A stretch of 64,000 nt of DNA from the sequence record PZ386965.1. One strand, given 5' to 3'. Below the pieces are notes generated by a model. The model searched no databases. It saw only the letters and a list, made by a program, of their open reading frames with translations, and was not told the DNA's origin. Positions 1,392 to 46,696 of the stretch are shown here, in pieces. The position numbers were made by a program, and so were the translations under genes. The number at the start of each line of letters is the position of its first letter. The first letter of the stretch is position 1. This stretch comes from a phage.

Positions 1392-1778
1392 TTATAGATT
1401 CGGTTTATATGATTTAAATGTTTCGAATTCGCCTTTATTCATAAGAGTTTTGAATTCGTCAGGACGCATAGCTTTGTCGTCGATAATCCAATCATATACT
1501 GGTTTATGTGTTAGCAAATTATGGTACTTCAAACCAATGTTTTCCAAGTTCTGAATCAGACTTGGGAGAATGTCAATTGCTATACGACCAGGACCTACTG
1601 ACTTCATACCACGAGCAGTGTAAAGCGTTATGGTATGCCCTGCATCATACAGGGCATTAATGGCAGACACCATTTCGACGTCCGGTTTGAAGTTCACGTA
1701 ATCACGATTGTTATTCCACTCTGTTATACAATCATCGACATCAAAACAAAGATTAAGCATGTTTTCTACACGGTGCAT
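1392..1778 (-). CDS. HAD-superfamily phosphatase-like protein
   Basis: Asp-rich DxD motif near N-terminus (FDVDDCIT); ATG overlaps upstream stop (TAATG); track ORF trimmed to internal ATG. Confidence 0.55.
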   Translation of the reverse strand: MHRVENMLNLCFDVDDCITEWNNNRDYVNFKPDVEMVSAINALYDAGHTITLYTARGMKSVGPGRIAIDILPSLIQNLENIGLKYHNLLTHKPVYDWIIDDKAMRPDEFKTLMNKGEFETFKSYKPNL

Positions 1779-9087: not shown

Positions 9088-9774
9088 TTAGAAGTCGTGA
9101 GTAGAATCGGCTTCCATCGCAATAACATAACTTACTTGAGAGCTTTCAAACTTAGCTGCAACTTTATCACCAGCTCCCCACAACATTACTTTATAGTTAC
9201 CTGGCTGGATTTTCATATTAGCCATATTGATTACGAAGTTAAAGTTGTTAGAACCATCATAATCAGTAAGAGTCAAAGAATACTTAGGACGAGTTAGACC
9301 AGAATCTTCAACTTTATTATAACCATTGATAACAATTTTACCATCTTTATTTGTAATAGCAATTGTATCAATCTGAAGACCACGTGAAACTCGAAGCAAT
9401 TGTTGAAGGTCTTCAGCTTTAATTTCAGTAATCACAGAAGCCACTGGGAATTGAATTGGCTTATTAGGAAAAACAATGGTGCTCTTGTCAGCGGCAGGCC
9501 AATAAACCGTGGAACGTGTATCTGCAATTTTAATATTGCCATCGGTGTGCATTGAAATTTCGGCATCATCAGACACTAGACTCAAAATGCTTAAGAAGCT
9601 ATTCAAATCATAAAGTGCTACGTCAAAATCAATTTCATCAGAGATATTTGCTTCCGCATAAGTGGTGCCATTAACTGCACGAGTCATAATAAATTTACCT
9701 TGACTCAGCAGAATGCCGGAGTTAATAGAGGCAAAGTTTTTCAGAATAGCGATAGTATCTTTAGACAGTTTCAT
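9088..9774 (-). CDS. 45: sliding clamp gp45
   Basis: 228 aa from MKLSKDTIAILKNF; collinear with T4 gp45. Confidence 0.93.
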   Translation of the reverse strand: MKLSKDTIAILKNFASINSGILLSQGKFIMTRAVNGTTYAEANISDEIDFDVALYDLNSFLSILSLVSDDAEISMHTDGNIKIADTRSTVYWPAADKSTIVFPNKPIQFPVASVITEIKAEDLQQLLRVSRGLQIDTIAITNKDGKIVINGYNKVEDSGLTRPKYSLTLTDYDGSNNFNFVINMANMKIQPGNYKVMLWGAGDKVAAKFESSQVSYVIAMEADSTHDF

Positions 9775-10461: not shown

Positions 10462-10469
10462 TATAAATA
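10462..10469 (+). promoter_or_regulatory. late promoter TATAAATA upstream of HNH endonuclease gene
   Basis: Exact TATAAATA about 45 nt upstream of ATG at 10515. Confidence 0.5.
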
Positions 10470-10514
10470 GGTTTATCAATTTATCTGTTGCTGTATCAAA
10501 TAAGGATTTAGTAA

Positions 10515-11231
10515 ATGAATTATAACTCAATATACGAAAAGCTTATTACCAATGCTAAATCAAGAAGTTTAGATGGTTATACAGAACGTCATCACATTAT
10601 ACCACAATGTTTAGGTGGAAGTGATGATGCTTCAAACTTAGTAGACTTAACACCAGAAGAACATTATTTGGCACATCAACTGTTGGTAAAAATCTATCCA
10701 GATAATGCCTCTTTAATATACGCTGCTCGTATGATGACCATATCATCTCCTAAAGCAGATAGAAGCAAAAACAAATTATTTGGATGGCTTCGTCGTAAGA
10801 ATCAAGAAGTTCAAAAGAACAAAGAATTCACGGCTGAAACCCGTAAGAAAATGTCCGAGTCTGCAAAAAATAAACCAAAGATTACCTGTCCACATTGTGG
10901 TTTAACTGGAACTGAAGGAAACATGCGTCGTTGGCATTTTGATAATTGTAAACAAGGTCCAACGCCTAAAATAGTAAAATTATCTGATGATGAAAAACAG
11001 AGGATAAGTTCTAAACTTAAAACAATAGAGTGGAAACTCCACACATGTGTACACTGTGGTCTAGAAGGAAAAGCTTGCAATATAGTTCCTCATGAGAAAA
11101 ACTGCAAACTTAATCCTAATAGAATAAAACCTAATGTAACAATAGTGGAATGTCCATACTGCTCTAAAAGTGGTTCTATATCAAATATGAAAAGATGGCA
11201 TTTCGATAATTGTAAATATAAGCCTCATTAA
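10515..11231 (+). CDS. free-standing HNH homing endonuclease with three Cys-rich repeats
   Basis: HNH core HHIIPQCLGGSDDASNLVDLTPEEHYLAH; three repeats of CxxCG...RRWHFDNCK; only plus-strand gene inside a minus-strand block. Confidence 0.85.
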   Translation: MNYNSIYEKLITNAKSRSLDGYTERHHIIPQCLGGSDDASNLVDLTPEEHYLAHQLLVKIYPDNASLIYAARMMTISSPKADRSKNKLFGWLRRKNQEVQKNKEFTAETRKKMSESAKNKPKITCPHCGLTGTEGNMRRWHFDNCKQGPTPKIVKLSDDEKQRISSKLKTIEWKLHTCVHCGLEGKACNIVPHEKNCKLNPNRIKPNVTIVECPYCSKSGSISNMKRWHFDNCKYKPH

Positions 11232-12916
11232 GAGGCTTTCATCACAGTAAATCGTCCAACTTTGCTCATTTGAAGATGTTGTCCATAAGCTTGTGGGTCA
11301 TGGTCTCTGTGACTAATTATAAACACGTTTGCATCGGTTAGAGAGTTAAGAATTGTTGAAATAGCTTTAATACCTTCAGAATCAGTCGCGGAATCCATGA
11401 CTTCGTCCATAATTAATGTATTGATTCTAACACCAGAGACCTTTTCAGCAATATCTCGCCATGTAAACAACAATGCGATATCGATACGTGCCTTTTCACC
11501 TTGACTAAATGAAGCATAACTGAACTCTTCACGGCCACGTGATTTTATAGATTCATTGAATTCTTCATCAATAGAAAACACGTAATCAGCTTCCATGATT
11601 TTAAGGTAATGGTTAATCTGCTTGTTGAACAGAGGCACATATTTTTTAATGATAGCACCTTTAATACCAGAATCTTTTAACATATCTGTGATAATACCAC
11701 GATGGTATTTTTCAAGAACGATATCTGATTTTGTTTTAATGATTTTATCAAGTTCTTTTTGAAGCAAAGCTATCTCATCGGCATGGTCGATAAATTCCGC
11801 CGAGGCTTGTTCTATTGCAGCTTTAACTTTCTTAGCTTTATCAATAGTGGCAATCATTGCTTGTTTCTTGGTACGAATATCAGATGCAAGGTCCTGTTTA
11901 GTCTTAACATTAGCTCTATATTCGTCCACTAGGACACTCAGATTATCTCTGTGACATGTAAGTTGCTCGAATGAGTGATTACATTCATGAAGCTTATCGG
12001 TAATCTTAGAGACAATAGGATCACCCTGGTGCAACTGTGATGCACAAGTAGGACATGTACCGCCATCATGATACATCTTAATAACTTTGTTATATGAGTC
12101 AATTTTAGATTTAATCAAGAATGCTTCTTGTCCGATCTTGTTGAATGCCTCAGTAGGGTCTTCGTCAAGAACGATATTAAGTAGACGCTCATTAGCTTCT
12201 TCGATTTCTGCTTTTAATGAACGAGCTTCTTTGGCTAGGTCGTCATACATATTCTGTAGACGCGCTACATTATCACCAGATAATTTCTTTTGACGTTCGA
12301 TATTCTCGTTATAAATCTTAATTTGTTGGATAACACCATCTTTCTTGGCATCGAGAACTTGTCCCTGGGAATTAAGTTCTCGAACTTGAGACTTATTGAT
12401 TTTATCCATTTCAGCAAGTGTGCCGACTTCTAAAAGGTCTTCGACAAGTTTTCTACGAGCAGGGGTGCTAAGAGCCATGAAAGGGGTATACCCTGCCGTC
12501 CCAAGCACAACGATCTGTTTAAAAGACGCGTATGACATTCCGATGCTACGTTCAAATTCTTCTTGGAAGTCACGACTGCTGGCAGATTCATCGAGACGAA
12601 CACCGTCAACGGAGATTTCGAAAATATTGGGCTTTTGGCCACGTTTAATGAAGTATTTTTTATCATCGAATTCCATCCAAAGCTCAACTAAGAGCTCTTT
12701 CTTGTTCGTGCTATTAATGATTTGTCCTTTCTTAACATCACGAAATGGTTTACCGAAAAGTCCGAAAGTAATGGCTTCTAACATCGTAGATTTACCACCG
12801 CCATTTTTACCAGTGATTAATGTTTTTTGGACTTTATCTAATTGGATATCAATAGGATTCCCACCTACCGACATGATGTTTTGATAACGAACACGATTTA
12901 ATTTAAATGATTTCAT
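11228..12916 (-). CDS. 46: recombination endonuclease subunit gp46 (Rad50/SbcC-like)
   Basis: 562 aa; Walker A GKNGGGKST; coiled-coil middle; T4 order. Confidence 0.93.
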   Translation of the reverse strand: MKSFKLNRVRYQNIMSVGGNPIDIQLDKVQKTLITGKNGGGKSTMLEAITFGLFGKPFRDVKKGQIINSTNKKELLVELWMEFDDKKYFIKRGQKPNIFEISVDGVRLDESASSRDFQEEFERSIGMSYASFKQIVVLGTAGYTPFMALSTPARRKLVEDLLEVGTLAEMDKINKSQVRELNSQGQVLDAKKDGVIQQIKIYNENIERQKKLSGDNVARLQNMYDDLAKEARSLKAEIEEANERLLNIVLDEDPTEAFNKIGQEAFLIKSKIDSYNKVIKMYHDGGTCPTCASQLHQGDPIVSKITDKLHECNHSFEQLTCHRDNLSVLVDEYRANVKTKQDLASDIRTKKQAMIATIDKAKKVKAAIEQASAEFIDHADEIALLQKELDKIIKTKSDIVLEKYHRGIITDMLKDSGIKGAIIKKYVPLFNKQINHYLKIMEADYVFSIDEEFNESIKSRGREEFSYASFSQGEKARIDIALLFTWRDIAEKVSGVRINTLIMDEVMDSATDSEGIKAISTILNSLTDANVFIISHRDHDPQAYGQHLQMSKVGRFTVMKAS

Positions 12917-15200: not shown

Positions 15201-15416
15201 TTATCTCATTAAATTAAAATAAAAACGTCCGTCCTCTTCAATACAGAACTCGTACTCAACTGGAGTCCCATTTATCGAAAATGACACGTCATGCGGGTTC
15301 AAAGGGTCGATGTCAAAATTAATTTTAAATTCTCGACCCAACAGTTTTACCAAATAAGGGATTGCTTCGTCAAAAGGTTCTTCTAAGTAGTTAGAGATGT
15401 CAATTGTCATCCTCAT
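15201..15416 (-). CDS. hypothetical protein
   Basis: ATG overlapping gene 55 stop. Confidence 0.45.
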
Positions 15417-15975
15417 ATAAAAAATCCAAACTAGGCGAATCGCTAACAACTTCCTTCTTTTCAGCCCCAGGAGCTTTATAAGCGGATTCTTCATAATGCG
15501 TCATTTTATCGTAGATGTCTTGAATAAACGTTTCATCTACCAACGCTACCATATCATCGTCATGACTGTCGTAGACATTATGAACGAAGTAACTATATTT
15601 CTTTGCAACTTCCTTACGTTCTTTTTTGATACGTTGGACAAAAGCATTAAAACAAGCTCGAGTTATGTATGCATGTGGGTTATTGTACTTAGTTTCGTCG
15701 AAATTATGAAGTCCCTTAATAGAGGCTTCAATCCCATCTGCAATCATCTCCTGCTTCCAAGACTGGGTATATCCTGAAAAGTTGAAACGTTTGGACAGGC
15801 CTTCGGCGATAAGCATAATTGCTAAACCGATGGTATCATTCTGACGAATAATTTTGTTTGGGTCTTTATTATTTAAGAGCTCCTTTTTCCACTCGATTAT
15901 AGCGGCGAGAAGCTCTTTATTATTCACATAGTTATTTTTAGGTTTTTGTTCAGTCATAAGTACCTCTTGGCTCAA
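15400..15975 (-). CDS. 55: late transcription sigma factor gp55
   Basis: [21 protein letters not shown] region collinear with T4 gp55; ~190 aa. Confidence 0.9.
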
Positions 15976-21677: not shown

Positions 21678-22147
21678 TTTAAACTCTTTCTAAGCTGCTT
21701 TTTGAATGAAGCTATTAATTGTGTTTTAGTATCAGATTCATTATATTCAAATCCTCTTTGAAGCATCTCGGCCATCATTTCCTCTTTACCTAGTCTTGAG
21801 AACTCTTTAGTTTTGTCTGGAACAAAATTAGGATGGATATTATTATCAGAATAATCTTGTTTCAAATAAGCAAGAAGAGCTTCAAGCCATTCTAAGTAGT
21901 CAACGTTTTGACCTTTCAAACCGGAACGGTTGAACTTATGCTTCATTTGACCTTCTGCTGCGTTGCACAGATTACAGAGTAATCCACGAACTCTACCGGC
22001 TTTTGGCCCATTTAATTCGTGGTCATGGTCAAGATGGTTACCTTGAACATCAGGGTCTAATTCACGGTGGCAAATAGGACACTTACCGTTCTGTGCATCA
22101 TAAAATTTTTGTTTTTCTTCTTTATATTTTGCGCCTGATAATAACAT
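21674..22147 (-). CDS. 49: endonuclease VII (Holliday junction resolvase) gp49
   Basis: 157 aa; CPICHRELD and HLDHDHELNG motifs as in T4 EndoVII. Confidence 0.93.
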   Translation of the reverse strand: MLLSGAKYKEEKQKFYDAQNGKCPICHRELDPDVQGNHLDHDHELNGPKAGRVRGLLCNLCNAAEGQMKHKFNRSGLKGQNVDYLEWLEALLAYLKQDYSDNNIHPNFVPDKTKEFSRLGKEEMMAEMLQRGFEYNESDTKTQLIASFKKQLRKSLK

Positions 22148-22166
22148 GATAAACCCTTACCTTAAA

Positions 22167-22175
22167 TAGATAAGG
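22167..22175 (-). promoter_or_regulatory. late promoter TATAAATA upstream of gene 49
   Basis: Plus-strand tatttata at 22168 = TATAAATA on minus. Confidence 0.5.
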
Positions 22176-22185
22176 GTATTTATAA

Positions 22186-33060: not shown

Positions 33061-33363
33061 TTAGATAGATGTAGGCTCTAATTTTATTTTCATGAACTCA
33101 GCAAATTGTCTGGCGGTTTTTATGCCTTGTTCATGACATTCAAATGCATCATCACAGGGACTATTTTTGTAATGCTTTGCCATATACTTATAGAATTTTT
33201 CAGAATTCTCGACATTTTGAATTTCAAACAAAGTATATACGTTTTTAATCCCTGATTCCATAAAGTTATCAAAATATGGGTCGATATGTGCAGTACCAAC
33301 GATAGGAGTTGTTGCTGCAAAAAACCCCAGCATCGCTATGACAGCTATCGCTCTTAAGGCCAT
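33061..33363 (-). CDS. rI: lysis inhibition regulator RI (antiholin)
   Basis: MALRAIAVIAMLGFFAATTP signal-anchor then DPYFDNFMESGIKNVYTLFE, collinear with T4 RI. Confidence 0.85.
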   Translation of the reverse strand: MALRAIAVIAMLGFFAATTPIVGTAHIDPYFDNFMESGIKNVYTLFEIQNVENSEKFYKYMAKHYKNSPCDDAFECHEQGIKTARQFAEFMKIKLEPTSI

Positions 33364-33375
33364 ATAGGCCTCCTG

Positions 33376-33588
33376 TTAATTTTGGCCAGTATTTATTTTT
33401 CGCCTTTGGACGGCCTTAACATCTGTGAGGTATTTTTCCAGCTTGCGCTTGCGTGTATAATCAGCTTTAGAACCAGTTTGACGGATATCCTCATTTAAAT
33501 GAGAAATAGAATGTCCTAATTCTCTTCGGATTTCATCCAATTGGGTTACAGTAAGATTACGAAGTTGTCTTTCGTTTAATTGCTGCAT
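33376..33588 (-). CDS. hypothetical protein
   Basis: 70-aa ORF. Confidence 0.5.
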
Positions 33589-33615
33589 ATATACCTCTTG
33601 GTTAGATATTAGTAT

Positions 33616-34197
33616 TTATAACAACCCTGTCAAATCATTCCAATGCTTCCGGCATAATGACACGTATCTATCAGTATCACCAATTTCAATTTGACTGCCA
33701 TCTGTAATTGGAAGTCCGTCTTCCGTGACTCTAGCTACCATTGTGGCCTTTTTACCACAATGACAGACACCTTTAAGTTCAACAAGCTTATCGGCAATAG
33801 CCATTAATGCTTGAGAACCTTCAAATAGATTACCTTTAAAATCTGTTCGTAGTCCATATGCCATTACTGGCACATTGTATACGTCAACAATACGACTAAG
33901 TTGATACACCTTTTCAGTAGTTAAGAACTGAGCTTCGTCAACAAATACACAATGAATATCCTTTTGTGCTGCAGCCCATTTATAGAATTCAAAGATGTCC
34001 ATGTCTTTTGTAATTATATTGGCATCCTGACGAATACCAATACGAGAGACTATTTCACCTTTTGAATCACGAGTATCAATAGCCGGTTTAAGAACTAATA
34101 CACCCATGCCACGTTCTTTATAGTTATGTGCAGCAGTAAGTAATGAAGCAGACTTACCGGCATTCATAGCGGCATATGTAAAAATTAAACTAGCCAT
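33616..34197 (-). CDS. tk: thymidine kinase
   Basis: 193 aa; P-loop YAAMNAGKS; C-terminal zinc cysteines. Confidence 0.95.
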   Translation of the reverse strand: MASLIFTYAAMNAGKSASLLTAAHNYKERGMGVLVLKPAIDTRDSKGEIVSRIGIRQDANIITKDMDIFEFYKWAAAQKDIHCVFVDEAQFLTTEKVYQLSRIVDVYNVPVMAYGLRTDFKGNLFEGSQALMAIADKLVELKGVCHCGKKATMVARVTEDGLPITDGSQIEIGDTDRYVSLCRKHWNDLTGLL

Positions 34198-38811: not shown

Positions 38812-39141
38812 TTATACTCTAGGCTTTTGAGCTTGTTTGGTATTGGATTCCCATGCGGCTTTGGTAATTTTGTTAGCGGCATAACCAAAGGCATTAGATA
38901 GAACACCTTTAGAGTTGAATACATCCAATCCAATAAGTACACCGGCTGCGTTAAATTTAGGAGCAAAGTACGCATTAGTTTTAGAAAGAGCTTTTTTCAA
39001 TTCAGGGTCTTGAACCAAGCCATCAAAAACGCCTTTACTATTTACTTTATATGTTACTTTGGGATTCTTACCTTCTTCGATAGCAGCTTTCTGTTCCGCA
39101 GATAATGTAACTTCAGTGATAAACTCCTGATATGTTTTCAT
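38812..39141 (-). CDS. internal head protein (capsid-targeting MKTYQEF N-terminus)
   Basis: MKTYQEFITE start like T4 IP capsid targeting sequence. Confidence 0.7.
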   Translation of the reverse strand: MKTYQEFITEVTLSAEQKAAIEEGKNPKVTYKVNSKGVFDGLVQDPELKKALSKTNAYFAPKFNAAGVLIGLDVFNSKGVLSNAFGYAANKITKAAWESNTKQAQKPRV

Positions 39142-39166: not shown

Positions 39167-39481
39167 TTATTCTTTAGGGAAGTTTTTAGAGTATGCATCA
39201 TAAAGTTTATTACCAATACGACGGAAGACTTTAGCTGCAAAACGGTTTTCAGGGTTTTTAATCATGATTTGCATCATGTAAGTTCCTGCATCCGAAAGAG
39301 CTTCTTCATAGTACCCATTAATTTCTTTAAGAGTCCTACGTTTACCACCAGGACCGTCAACAGTAATTTTCCATTTACCTGTAGAAGTGCGGCTCGGTGG
39401 CTCAACTTGTTCAATCCAAATATAACCACCTTCAACGCGTTGGTTGGCGGATTCTGCAATAAATTCTTTATACGTTTTCAT
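39167..39481 (-). CDS. internal head protein (capsid-targeting N-terminus)
   Basis: MKTYKEFIAE start. Confidence 0.7.
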   Translation of the reverse strand: MKTYKEFIAESANQRVEGGYIWIEQVEPPSRTSTGKWKITVDGPGGKRRTLKEINGYYEEALSDAGTYMMQIMIKNPENRFAAKVFRRIGNKLYDAYSKNFPKE

Positions 39482-39545: not shown

Positions 39546-39806
39546 TTAAGCTTTACCTCCAGAAATAATTCCGAAGTTGTTAAAATCGTATCCAATATCG
39601 TCAACATCTACTTTAGGACTTACTACAACATAAGCAATTTCACTACGTTTTGCATAGGTGTTGATTTCTTTACCATCGCCACCTAAGAAAGAATACCCAT
39701 TACGTTTTAATGAGCCAAAGTCTTCCGCATCACCAATGAAAGCTTTAACTTTAAATTTGGGGTCTTTGGCATCTGCTTCAATGATAAATTCTTGATACAT
39801 TTTCAT
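39546..39806 (-). CDS. internal head protein (capsid-targeting N-terminus)
   Basis: MKMYQEFIIE start with AAGGA RBS. Confidence 0.6.
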   Translation of the reverse strand: MKMYQEFIIEADAKDPKFKVKAFIGDAEDFGSLKRNGYSFLGGDGKEINTYAKRSEIAYVVVSPKVDVDDIGYDFNNFGIISGGKA

Positions 39807-39813
39807 TTTTTCC

Positions 39814-40227
39814 TTAGTAAATTGATTTACCATAGTATTTGTACCAAGACGGCCGTTGAGCAATTTTTTCATCTAAGCGTGCTTGACTTATCGCAATGGA
39901 CGCTTCGGACGGGACGTAATTATTACGAAATTCTACAGGAATGTCGGAAATATCCTGGACAGTCGTGTCCTTGATTTTGAAACCACGTTTCAAGCATTCA
40001 GCGATTAGCTCGATTTGACGTAAACGTAAAAATTCGAGTTTGTCGTAAAAGAATGTTACGTGACCTGTGCCTAAGATAAATGTTGGAGAGATTTTAAAAT
40101 CCTTTACACGTTTACCGTTTTGAACATGTTTACGGACTGCACCAAATACGCGTGGTAATTCACGATACTCGGCCATAAGATGTTGGTCGGCCAGTTCAGA
40201 AACAAGTGTTAAATTGATACGGGTCAT
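39814..40227 (-). CDS. denV: pyrimidine dimer DNA glycosylase DenV (endonuclease V)
   Basis: [34 protein letters not shown] collinear with T4 DenV; 137 aa. Confidence 0.95.
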
Positions 40228-40230
40228 AAT

Positions 40231-40280
40231 TTCCTCCAAGTAGTTGATGAATGTATAGTATCAAAACTCTTGGAGGAAGT
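40231..40280 (-). promoter_or_regulatory. early promoter / stem-loop cassette
   Basis: TTCCTCCAAG..CTTGGAGGAA inverted repeat around -10, GTTTAC -35 on minus. Confidence 0.5.
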
Positions 40281-40285
40281 AAACA

Positions 40286-40567
40286 CTATTTTTCTGAAGC
40301 GCCTGAAATATATTTTTCAAGACGTTGTTTCATCAGCGAGCCGTTCTTAGCAATTTCTTCCGGTTTATCGCACATGCGCAACAATGCTTCAAGCTTAACG
40401 ATATCACTGGTACGTTCAAATTTGCGAGTATCTATCTTACTAGCAAGTTCAGAAATACGTGCTAATAGACTTTCAGCTTCAACCAAAGCTGCACCTAGCT
40501 TAGTTGCAAATGTGTCAGTAGCTTCGTTAAGAATAGATTCTGATAAAAATTCACTATATGTTTTCAT
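40286..40567 (-). CDS. internal head protein (capsid-targeting N-terminus)
   Basis: [10 protein letters not shown] start. Confidence 0.65.
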
Positions 40568-41052
40568 ATATACGCTTTCCAAGTTCCTGTTTTAAATGTT
40601 GAGATTACGCGTTTCGCTCGATTAGGTGTCTGACGATACCATTTAGATTGGGCTAGATTTACTGCCGCCTCGTCCCAACGTTTCTGTTGAAGCATACGAA
40701 GAGAATTAGTAAAACCGGCAACGCCTGCTACACCCATTTGGAAGACCATATTGATCAATGCACATCGACGAACCGCATCTAAAGAATCATATACCGGTTT
40801 AAGTTTAGCATTACCCAAGATTCCTCGAACGGCTTTATCAACGTCTTCATTAAATAGCTTTTCAGCCTCATCAAGGGTAATTGTACCGTTGCATTTACGA
40901 CCGATCATTCTGTCAAGTTCAGCTTTAGCTACGGCTAAAGACGGGTTCTTTGTTACTAAATGGCCTATGCCAATCGTCCAAAAGCCTTCAGTGTCTTTAT
41001 ATAAAGTCAGTCTAAGACCTTCGTCATTACGAAGCATTTCAAATATATTCAT
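40564..41052 (-). CDS. e: endolysin (T4 lysozyme)
   Basis: [32 protein letters not shown] with catalytic Glu/Asp/Thr positions as in T4 lysozyme. Confidence 0.96.
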
Positions 41053-41080
41053 AATACCTCCCACGTTTATAGGAGGTATT
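41053..41080 (-). promoter_or_regulatory. RBS-sequestering hairpin with embedded late-promoter-like TATAAACG upstream of e
   Basis: Minus RNA ACCUCC-UAUAAACGU-GGGAGGU-AUU-AUG: SD paired in stem. Confidence 0.6.
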
Positions 41081-41086
41081 TATTAC

Positions 41087-41545
41087 TTATAGGATGGTAG
41101 TGAGCACCTTATATAACGATTTGCCCATTACATATTCCCATTGAGAAGGTTTAATTAAAGCGAATGCATCAAATTCAGGAATCTGACGTCCGTCTGGGAA
41201 TGTATGATAGGAATTACAAACACTGTTTCTGAATTGCTCGTGCTCTACAGGGATGGTATATAGGAACAGATGAATATTCTTATTGTCTGAGTAATGATGT
41301 TCACCTAGGTCTTTCAGGAAGGCAGGGTCATATTGTGTAAACCCAGTTTCTTCTTCGCATTCACGAATAGCGGCTTCGATAGGAGATTCACCTGGCTCGA
41401 CACGGCCTTTAGGAATATCCCACCGATGAGCTAAAGAACCTTTAGGACGAGAACCAGTTACACGCCCCATGAATAATTCTTTATCTTCGGTAAGGAAAAT
41501 AATACCGGCTGATAGTTCTTTCACTTTATTTTTCTTACTCATCAT
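41087..41545 (-). CDS. nudE: Nudix hydrolase NudE
   Basis: Nudix box GRVEPGESPIEAAIRECEEETG. Confidence 0.9.
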   Translation of the reverse strand: MMSKKNKVKELSAGIIFLTEDKELFMGRVTGSRPKGSLAHRWDIPKGRVEPGESPIEAAIRECEEETGFTQYDPAFLKDLGEHHYSDNKNIHLFLYTIPVEHEQFRNSVCNSYHTFPDGRQIPEFDAFALIKPSQWEYVMGKSLYKVLTTIL

Positions 41546-41786
41546 CTCGGTCCCATGATTTAGCCATTAATTCGGACATAAATTCTTCAATGCGCGTTTC
41601 TTTAGATGGACTTTCACTATTAGAGACCGCAAGTTTGTAATCTGCAATAGGACAGAACATATCAAGGTCCGTATTAAGGTCGTCTTTGATTTTTTCTTCT
41701 GACACATCTTTATCGTATGTGTACAGATAACTATCACATGATTCTGATTTAATGTAAATTGCTATACTCATCTCAAATTCCTGCAT
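41535..41786 (-). CDS. hypothetical acidic protein
   Basis: Track ORF. Confidence 0.45.
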   Translation of the reverse strand: MQEFEMSIAIYIKSESCDSYLYTYDKDVSEEKIKDDLNTDLDMFCPIADYKLAVSNSESPSKETRIEEFMSELMAKSWDRDDE

Positions 41787-42259
41787 TCGGTAATAAAACG
41801 TTCAACTTCATTATTCTTGGCCTTTATCTTGTCTTTACGTTCCTGTAAACTACTTTTAACAAGATTAATAATGATGGCGGCGGTACCGCCGCCAATGATG
41901 CCACCAACAACACTTATGATACTAGATGCTAATAAGATAGCAATAATATCAACAAAACCGAAAGAACTCACCTTAGTACTGAAAAACCATACCGACGGTA
42001 CAAATATAATCCATCCTGTTATCCATTGGCACTTATTGAAAAACTTTTCAAGCTCAGCTTGAGTTGTTCGTATTACTTCATCGATAGGTTGATATCCATT
42101 AATGTATCTGTTCACGATAATACCTGCTGGCTGGTCGATTTTAAATTCTTGGCAAATACGTTTCACTAAGTAGGATGGACATCCTGTCCAATCTACTGAA
42201 TAGTATGAAATACCTTCGTTGCCATCGTCTATATTAGACCAATATGTTTTGTTAATCAT
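41768..42259 (-). CDS. membrane protein
   Basis: Hydrophobic segments plus Gly-rich IGGGTAAIII. Confidence 0.5.
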   Translation of the reverse strand: MINKTYWSNIDDGNEGISYYSVDWTGCPSYLVKRICQEFKIDQPAGIIVNRYINGYQPIDEVIRTTQAELEKFFNKCQWITGWIIFVPSVWFFSTKVSSFGFVDIIAILLASSIISVVGGIIGGGTAAIIINLVKSSLQERKDKIKAKNNEVERFITECRNLR

Positions 42260-43267: not shown

Positions 43268-43316
43268 TTTTAATAGGACTACTATAACATAGTCCTATCT
43301 TGTTGTAAACAGTTTT
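43268..43316 (-). promoter_or_regulatory. early promoter / stem-loop cassette (high-identity copy)
   Basis: TAATAGGACTACTATAACATAGTCCTATCTTGTTGTAAAC. Confidence 0.55.
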
Positions 43317-46131: not shown

Positions 46132-46696
46132 ATTCTCTACATTCCATAATAAATTGCTCAAGGATTAAATTGTTAGTGAAATTAGGACTAACAACCATAG
46201 TTTCATAAAGCGCATCAATAGCACTTAAAGCATCAACTCTTTTAAGCAAAGGCTTGCCTTCATACATAGTTTCAGAATCGATGATTAACGTAAAGTAATA
46301 TTTTTTATTATCGACTAGAACTTCTGTATCGATATAAAACATATTAGACCTCAGAAGCTTATCTCTAAAACCATAATAATCTTCTGAACGTTCGCTGATA
46401 TATTCCCATTCAGTGTTTAAACAACAAACAGACCATGTAGGAGCAACGAAATCAGTGAATCTAATATCATGGTCTGCAACTAGTTTAGCAATAGCTCCGA
46501 TATCATGAATCATAATACCTGGGGCTAATAAAGATTTTCGGCGATTTGCGTATTCAGTTGTCTCATAAGAAGCTGACCAGTACCATTTACGTCCAGTTGC
46601 AACATATCGTAATGAATCAACTAAAGACGTAGGTGGATTTACCTTATCTCGGAACTCTTCGAACATTGAGTCAATATCATTATTTTGGTTTCGCAT
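46100..46696 (-). CDS. hypothetical protein
   Basis: ATG with AAAGGAG RBS. Confidence 0.55.
   Translation of the reverse strand: MRNQNNDIDSMFEEFRDKVNPPTSLVDSLRYVATGRKWYWSASYETTEYANRRKSLLAPGIMIHDIGAIAKLVADHDIRFTDFVAPTWSVCCLNTEWEYISERSEDYYGFRDKLLRSNMFYIDTEVLVDNKKYYFTLIIDSETMYEGKPLLKRVDALSAIDALYETMVVSPNFTNNLILEQFIMECREYVKANPVHAN

Follow-up and report, generated by a model that had tools for sequence, protein, structure and literature searches.

The gene e leader of an RB69-like phage as a probable counterpart of the T4 lysozyme timing switch

Introduction

The leader of the bacteriophage T4 lysozyme gene, e, is a classic case of gene timing by choice of the mRNA 5' end, with no repressor involved. 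Early transcripts that extend into e form a structure that sequesters the ribosome-binding site and lowers lysozyme synthesis about 100-fold (PMC3014915). The hairpin structure has been demonstrated, and it is bypassed by two late promoters whose transcripts lack its 5' arm (McPheeters et al., 1986, NAR 14:5813, as summarised in PMC3014915). T4 late promoters consist of TATAAATA at positions -13 to -6 (PMC1524935). At the T4 gene 49, soc and I-TevI leaders a late promoter is likewise placed so that late transcripts lose the 5' arm of a helix that masks the Shine-Dalgarno sequence (SD) or the AUG (PMC3014915); compared with e, these are different genes with unrelated stems, that is, analogous devices and not homologous leaders.

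Leaders similar to that of T4 e have been predicted in close T4-type relatives, with a T4-type late promoter in the region of the 5' strand, as depicted in Figure 5A of a review (Uzan and Miller, 2010, Virol J 7:360; PMC3014915). RB69 is presumably among the phages shown there, because, as far as the figure legend goes, it is missing from the lists of phages that lack e or lack the structure. Here we analyse the e leader in a stretch of 64,000 nt of phage DNA (record PZ386965.1), called the window below. A sequence-only reading of this DNA had noticed a hairpin at the lysozyme start and pointed to the silencing of T4 lysozyme by such a structure, a mechanism that is in the literature and was shown experimentally for T4 gene e (PMC3014915).

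Results

The window comes from a Mosigvirus, an RB69-like T4-type phage; over 1.1 kb it is 98.5% identical to several Escherichia phages, with 'Mosigvirus mar005p1' among the matches. Its lysozyme gene is the orthologue of T4 e (soluble lysozyme) in conserved synteny (Table 1). The product matches Pfam Phage_lysozyme (51 bits against a cut-off of 22.3) and also phrog_7 endolysin, and shares 84.5% amino acid identity with the product of the T6 e gene; the order nudE-e-internal head protein-denV is common to the window, T4 and RB69. The stop codon of nudE (TAA, 41089..41087) ends 2 nt before the late-promoter-like 8-mer at the foot of the hairpin described below, so that read-through out of nudE would carry the full hairpin. 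A GTG at 41064 that was listed as a possible ORF start lies inside the hairpin and lacks an SD; it was rejected, and the ATG at 41052 is preferred.

The e leader of RB69 is identical to that of the window, which was found in 153 phage records, in 152 of them at no less than 95% identity. In the RB69 RefSeq record NC_004928 the annotated e CDS (65200..65673, 157 aa) begins at the second in-frame ATG. Because leader, SD and first ATG are identical to those of the window, a 162-aa product beginning MNIFEM, like that of T4, appears more likely for RB69.

At its other end, e overlaps the gene for an internal head protein (93 aa, phrog_3499) in an ATGA, formed by the TGA of e (40566..40564) and the ATG of the head protein gene (40567..40565), which suggests that the two genes are co-transcribed from the e late promoter and coupled in translation. 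Small ORFs near e (38812..39141, 39167..39481 and 39546..39872, minus strand) have N-termini of the MKTY(Q/K/S)EF type typical of T4 internal proteins.

Table 1. Features of the e locus and of the gene 49 leader, in window coordinates.
Feature	Position	Strand	Remarks
Whole hairpin	41053..41080	minus	5' arm AAUACCUCCUAU 41080..41069, loop AAAC 41068..41065, 3' arm GUGGGAGGUAUU 41064..41053
Shine-Dalgarno GGAGG	41057..41061	minus	4 nt before ATG; 5/5 nt paired in MFE structure
Anti-Shine-Dalgarno arm CCUCC	41072..41076	minus	occupies -5..-1 of predicted foot late promoter
Candidate gp55-type late promoter AATAAATA (-13..-6 element)	41077..41084	minus	5' foot of stem
Predicted late transcription start (+1)	41071	minus	six nt after last A of foot 8-mer; directly 3' of anti-SD arm
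Loop element TATAAACG	41064..41071	minus	positional counterpart of T4's proximal late promoter TATAAATA; degenerate
Lysozyme (gene e) CDS, 162 aa	40564..41052	minus	ATG 41052..41050, stop TGA 40566..40564
Nudix hydrolase gene nudE/e.1	41087..41545	minus	phrog_1185; upstream of e, co-oriented
Sigma-70/T4-early-like promoter match TTTACA-17-TATAGT with TG	43281..43309	minus	nearest strong upstream; consensus match only
Gene 49 leader (endonuclease VII, 157 aa, ATG 22147)	22145..22184	minus	TATAAATA (22184..22177) adjoins SD-pairing hairpin CCCUUAUC/GGUAAGGG

On the minus strand, positions 41080..41053 read AATACCTCCTATAAACGTGGGAGGTATT, laid out as AATACCTCC-TATAAACGTG-GGAGGTATT, and are followed directly by the ATG of e (wider context ...CCTATAAGTAATAAATACCTCCTATAAACGTGGGAGGTATTATGAATATATTTGAA...). 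Secondary-structure prediction gives a hairpin of 12 pairs, nine of them Watson-Crick. The outer nine, all Watson-Crick, join AAUACCUCC (41080..41072) to GGAGGUAUU (41061..41053), and the inner three join UAU (41071..41069) to GUG (41064..41062) as U.G, A-U and U.G. The sequence-only reading had placed the SD in a 6-bp stem; the hairpin is real and the SD fully paired, but the stem is longer than proposed. Within an 81-nt context the hairpin is both the MFE and the centroid structure.

The 34-nt e leader folds with an MFE of -16.3 kcal/mol, compared with -4.45 +/- 2.14 kcal/mol in 200 dinucleotide shuffles (z = -5.54; 0/200 shuffles fold as well). When the 34-nt leaders of all SD-bearing ORF starts were folded across the window (n = 81), the e leader was the most stable (rank 1/81), the others averaging -2.9 +/- 2.9 kcal/mol. 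Judged by the computed fold, a stable helix that pairs the SD would be present in transcripts started upstream. Rfam covariance models gave no match with E <= 1 on either strand of 40000..42000. The region is short and A+T-rich, and AATA/TATT complementarity arises easily in such an intergenic spacer, so that its pairing with a strong SD could be fortuitous and without function. Such a chance origin is effectively refuted by the z score, the shuffles and the rank among gene starts, together with the conservation of the hairpin, through alternative helices and one compensatory change, in all 19 distinct leaders (see below).

Second in the same ranking (2/81) is the hairpin of gene 49, at -12.9 kcal/mol. 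Gene 49 is a known T4 case of such control and thus serves as an internal positive control for the fold ranking. The leader of a 198-aa ORF (phrog_2607, ATG 46696) ranks fifth of 81, with an SD-masking stem CUCCUUU/AAAGGAG of -8.1 kcal/mol at 46663..46696 (minus strand); no late-promoter 8-mer was seen upstream of this ORF. At the rI.1/rI lysis-inhibition pair, also on the minus strand (segments 33588..33620 and 33340..33400), a perfect TATAAATA (33620..33613) stands 32 nt before rI.1, as in T4, and a second 8-mer, AATAAATA (33397..33390, minus), stands inside rI.1, 34 nt before rI, where T4 has AGTAAATA. A small helix, AGGCC/GGCCU, that reaches from the end of the rI SD to codon 2 is common to the window and T4 (locus 1480..1760). 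The rI-like gene was not counted as a third instance of the device, as its 8-mer is not conserved in T4 and lies within the rI.1 coding region.

The genes between a promoter-like site at 43309..43281 and e all point the same way and are closely packed; this site, recognised by consensus scan only, is a candidate source of early read-through transcripts. A consensus scan of the minus strand found no terminator-like site between nudE and e. Between the promoter-like site and e, the only terminator-like sites, 42062..42048 and 41894..41875, are inside ORF 42259..41768. The second of these is a strong G+C palindrome, TGGCGGCGGTACCGCCGCCA (41875..41894, minus), in the glycine-rich segment GGIIGGGTAA of this 163-aa ORF; it lacks a proper U-tract and probably arises by coincidence from the coding sequence.

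The position of the e hairpin, a stable stem containing G+C that comes right after the stop codon of nudE, would also suit a terminator, a 3' stabiliser of nudE mRNA or an RNase-processing or protection site, in place of a device that blocks translation of e. In T4-type phages RegB targets GGAG motifs, and pairing could also shield such a site (PMC3014915 for RegB). However, the 3' arm is the SD of e in every lineage, and while the shape of the stem changes, the SD is always paired; in T4, moreover, early transcripts do read into e (PMC3014915). A Rho-independent terminator was rejected, since the stem's tail, AUUAUGAAUAUAU, has no U-tract and the terminator scan did not report the hairpin. 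Taken as a whole, this group of roles is highly improbable as an explanation of the hairpin.

The foot of the stem carries AATAAATA, an imperfect consensus with a single deviation from TATAAATA, an A at -13. The last four nucleotides of this 8-mer, AATA, are the outermost 5' bases of the stem, and the other four lie outside the segment that the sequence-only reading had singled out. Among 50 listed T4 late-promoter sites, 32 are perfect, nine have A at -13, the commonest variant, and just two depart from the consensus at more than one position (PMC2988020); A or T at -13 is common in RB69 and other relatives (PMC1524935). Both the late sigma factor gp55 (15400..15957; phrog_234, E = 3.7e-68) and the gp45 clamp (9088..9774; Pfam gp45-slide_C and DNA_PPF) are encoded in the window.

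The distance from the foot 8-mer to the ATG, 32 nt, resembles that of other minus-strand 8-mers in the window. Six of the eight minus-strand [TA]ATAAATA 8-mers sit 28-43 nt before a first ATG (3% expected, P about 2e-8), and the well-placed ones include 8-mers upstream of gene 49 and of the head-closure gene. By number, neither TATAAATA nor AATAAATA is over-represented in the window (8 against 8.3 expected and 6 against 11 expected, respectively). A perfect TATAAATA also occurs 53 nt upstream of an HNH-type homing endonuclease ORF (238 aa, phrog_655, 10462..11231, plus strand), which lies on the opposite strand between the gp45 gene and a 562-aa ORF (12916..11228) and looks like a mobile-element insertion with late-promoter control.

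The geometry of the foot promoter predicts a late start at 41071. With CCUCC at -5 to -1, the anti-SD arm would be present only in read-through (early) transcripts, and with +1 just 3' of CCUCC, late mRNA would lack this arm and be unstructured; the computed energy of a leader begun at 41071 is only -0.4 kcal/mol. For RB69, a published HMM scan reports 31 late promoters, but none in the vicinity of e, at about 65.7 kb (PMC1524935, Additional File 5), from which it follows that the foot element scores poorly in a context-aware model, perhaps because CCTCC, just downstream, is rich in G+C. A similar sequence, CCTTC, follows the mapped upstream e promoter of T4.

The TATAAA that the sequence-only reading had seen in the loop is in the sequence as claimed and belongs to the 8-mer TATAAACG. 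This element, matching T4's proximal TATAAATA in position, could be the late promoter in use, or could add a second one, T4 having two for e; late transcripts would then start 3' of the loop. Variant T4 late promoters can be active (PMC2988020), and some Mosigvirus genomes carry TATAAATG in the loop, with one mismatch only. In the window, however, the loop element has two mismatches to TATAAATA, at -7 and -6, a degree of deviation seen in just the two of 50 T4 sites mentioned above. Because the loop is 2 nt shorter than that of T4, a transcript started by this element would begin at 41058, within GGAGG, and its leader, GGUAUUAUG, would no longer contain an intact SD. The element is also only 19 nt from the ATG, compared with 28-43 nt for the other 8-mers. 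Within Mosigvirus it is polymorphic, C41065 being replaced by T in AV109 to give TATAAATG. Among the leaders examined, a perfect TATAAATA in the loop is confined to Tequatrovirus, and the loop region of the Dhaka-, Gapriver-, Karam- and Winklervirus leaders bears no resemblance to a late promoter.

We consider late initiation from the loop unlikely, and its identification as the late promoter was probably wrong: the foot AATAAATA, 13 nt away, is probably the better candidate for what is a predicted promoter. Going by its sequence, the loop element is probably non-functional as a promoter and most likely a decayed remnant of a T4-type proximal late promoter; the second, proximal promoter of T4 would then be absent here, and the mechanism can do without it. 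If the foot promoter is true, changing AATAAATA to AATGAATA would abolish late lysozyme mRNA.

Compared directly with T4, the window has the same outer stem (AAUACC.../...GGAGGUAUU) and the same SD-to-AUG spacing. In both phages a late-promoter 8-mer adjoins the anti-SD arm, with the predicted +1 just 3' of it, and co-oriented early genes lie upstream. The two leaders differ in their promoter elements: T4 has two perfect TATAAATA, at the foot and in the loop, whereas the window has AATAAATA at the foot and TATAAACG in the loop, the latter 2 nt closer to the SD. As anti-SD the window has a perfect CCUCC and T4 has CCUUC, with a G.U pair, and the computed stability is -16.3 kcal/mol against -13.3 kcal/mol for the T4 leader folded in the same way.

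For a wider comparison, we collected 75 loci encoding lysozyme relatives from IMG/VR together with named GenBank phages of several genera. The succession of (T/A/G)ATAAATA, anti-SD arm, loop, SD arm and ATG occurs in each of the 33 T4-like loci whose protein identity is 63% or more, and likewise in every named Tevenvirinae phage examined. In an Aeromonas T4-like phage that was examined the device is absent, consistent with PMC3014915. Nineteen leaders were distinct; they represent at least six named genera (Mosig-, Tequatro-, Dhaka-, Gapriver-, Winkler- and Karamvirus) as well as a Klebsiella T4-like phage. MAFFT alignment followed by RNAalifold yielded a meaningless 5-pair consensus for these 19 and was dropped; it failed because an extra C between the 8-mer and CUCC in one group shifts the register of the anti-SD. 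We instead folded each leader separately and tabulated the pairs with the SD as anchor.

The CUCC and GGAG of the core pair with each other in every one of the 19 leaders. An outer helix, AAUAC/GUAUU, is found in Mosig-, Tequatro-, Dhaka- and Gaprivervirus; it is lost in the Karamvirus, Winklervirus and Klebsiella types, where the 3' side reads GUCCU and an inner helix, UAUC/GAUA, is formed instead. One double compensatory change, U-A to C-G, occurs in the SP18 type (Gaprivervirus); covariation support is thin because SD and promoter are both constrained in sequence. Folding energies range from -8.7 to -16.6 kcal/mol for the full leaders, in which 4-5 of the 5 SD nucleotides are paired, and from 0 to -4.4 kcal/mol once the leaders are truncated to the predicted late start. 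The ATAAATA core is also invariant (19/19), even in lineages in which those bases are unpaired; the stem cannot explain this conservation, which points to a promoter.

Discussion

The e leader of the window is very probably the RB69-type (Mosigvirus) orthologue of the translational timing switch of T4 gene e, with transcript 5' ends, read-through and a translational effect that we infer from the computed folds and from the T4 case. The proposal of the sequence-only reading that a T4-type SD hairpin, escaped by internally started late transcripts, is conserved here holds up, given the orthologous gene in its synteny, the z score of the fold and its recurrence in all 19 leaders.

In the proposed switch, early and middle transcripts would start upstream and, having crossed nudE, include the 28-nt inverted repeat in full. 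The hairpin, at about -16 kcal/mol, would pair the entire SD with the anti-SD CCUCC; with the SD buried, 30S subunits could not bind and no lysozyme would be made early, sparing the cell while it is still needed. Late, after DNA replication, RNA polymerase carrying gp55 would initiate at AATAAATA (41084..41077). Since this 8-mer adjoins the anti-SD arm, the transcript would start at about 41071 and could not form the hairpin, leaving the SD free and the lysozyme translated.

We lean towards the view that Mosigvirus and most Tevenvirinae genera other than Tequatrovirus depend for late lysozyme expression on just one late promoter, which is fused to the anti-SD arm, that the two-promoter layout of T4 is the exception, and that selection acts on SD masking as such, because the genera keep the SD paired by means of different helices. 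If true, this would refine a known mechanism and not constitute a new one. Both the mechanism (T4, 1986) and its conservation in relatives (2010 review) are already published, and the copy in the window is an ordinary one that opens no new question.

The comparison is of use for annotation, both of start codons, in that the RB69 RefSeq e begins at the second ATG, and of late promoters, the foot site having been missed by the published HMM scan. In phage engineering, payloads placed near e would inherit late-only translation. For the phages themselves, such a leader would delay the endolysin to late infection so that premature lysis is avoided, and the device in the window mainly confirms that this arrangement is conserved in RB69-type phages.
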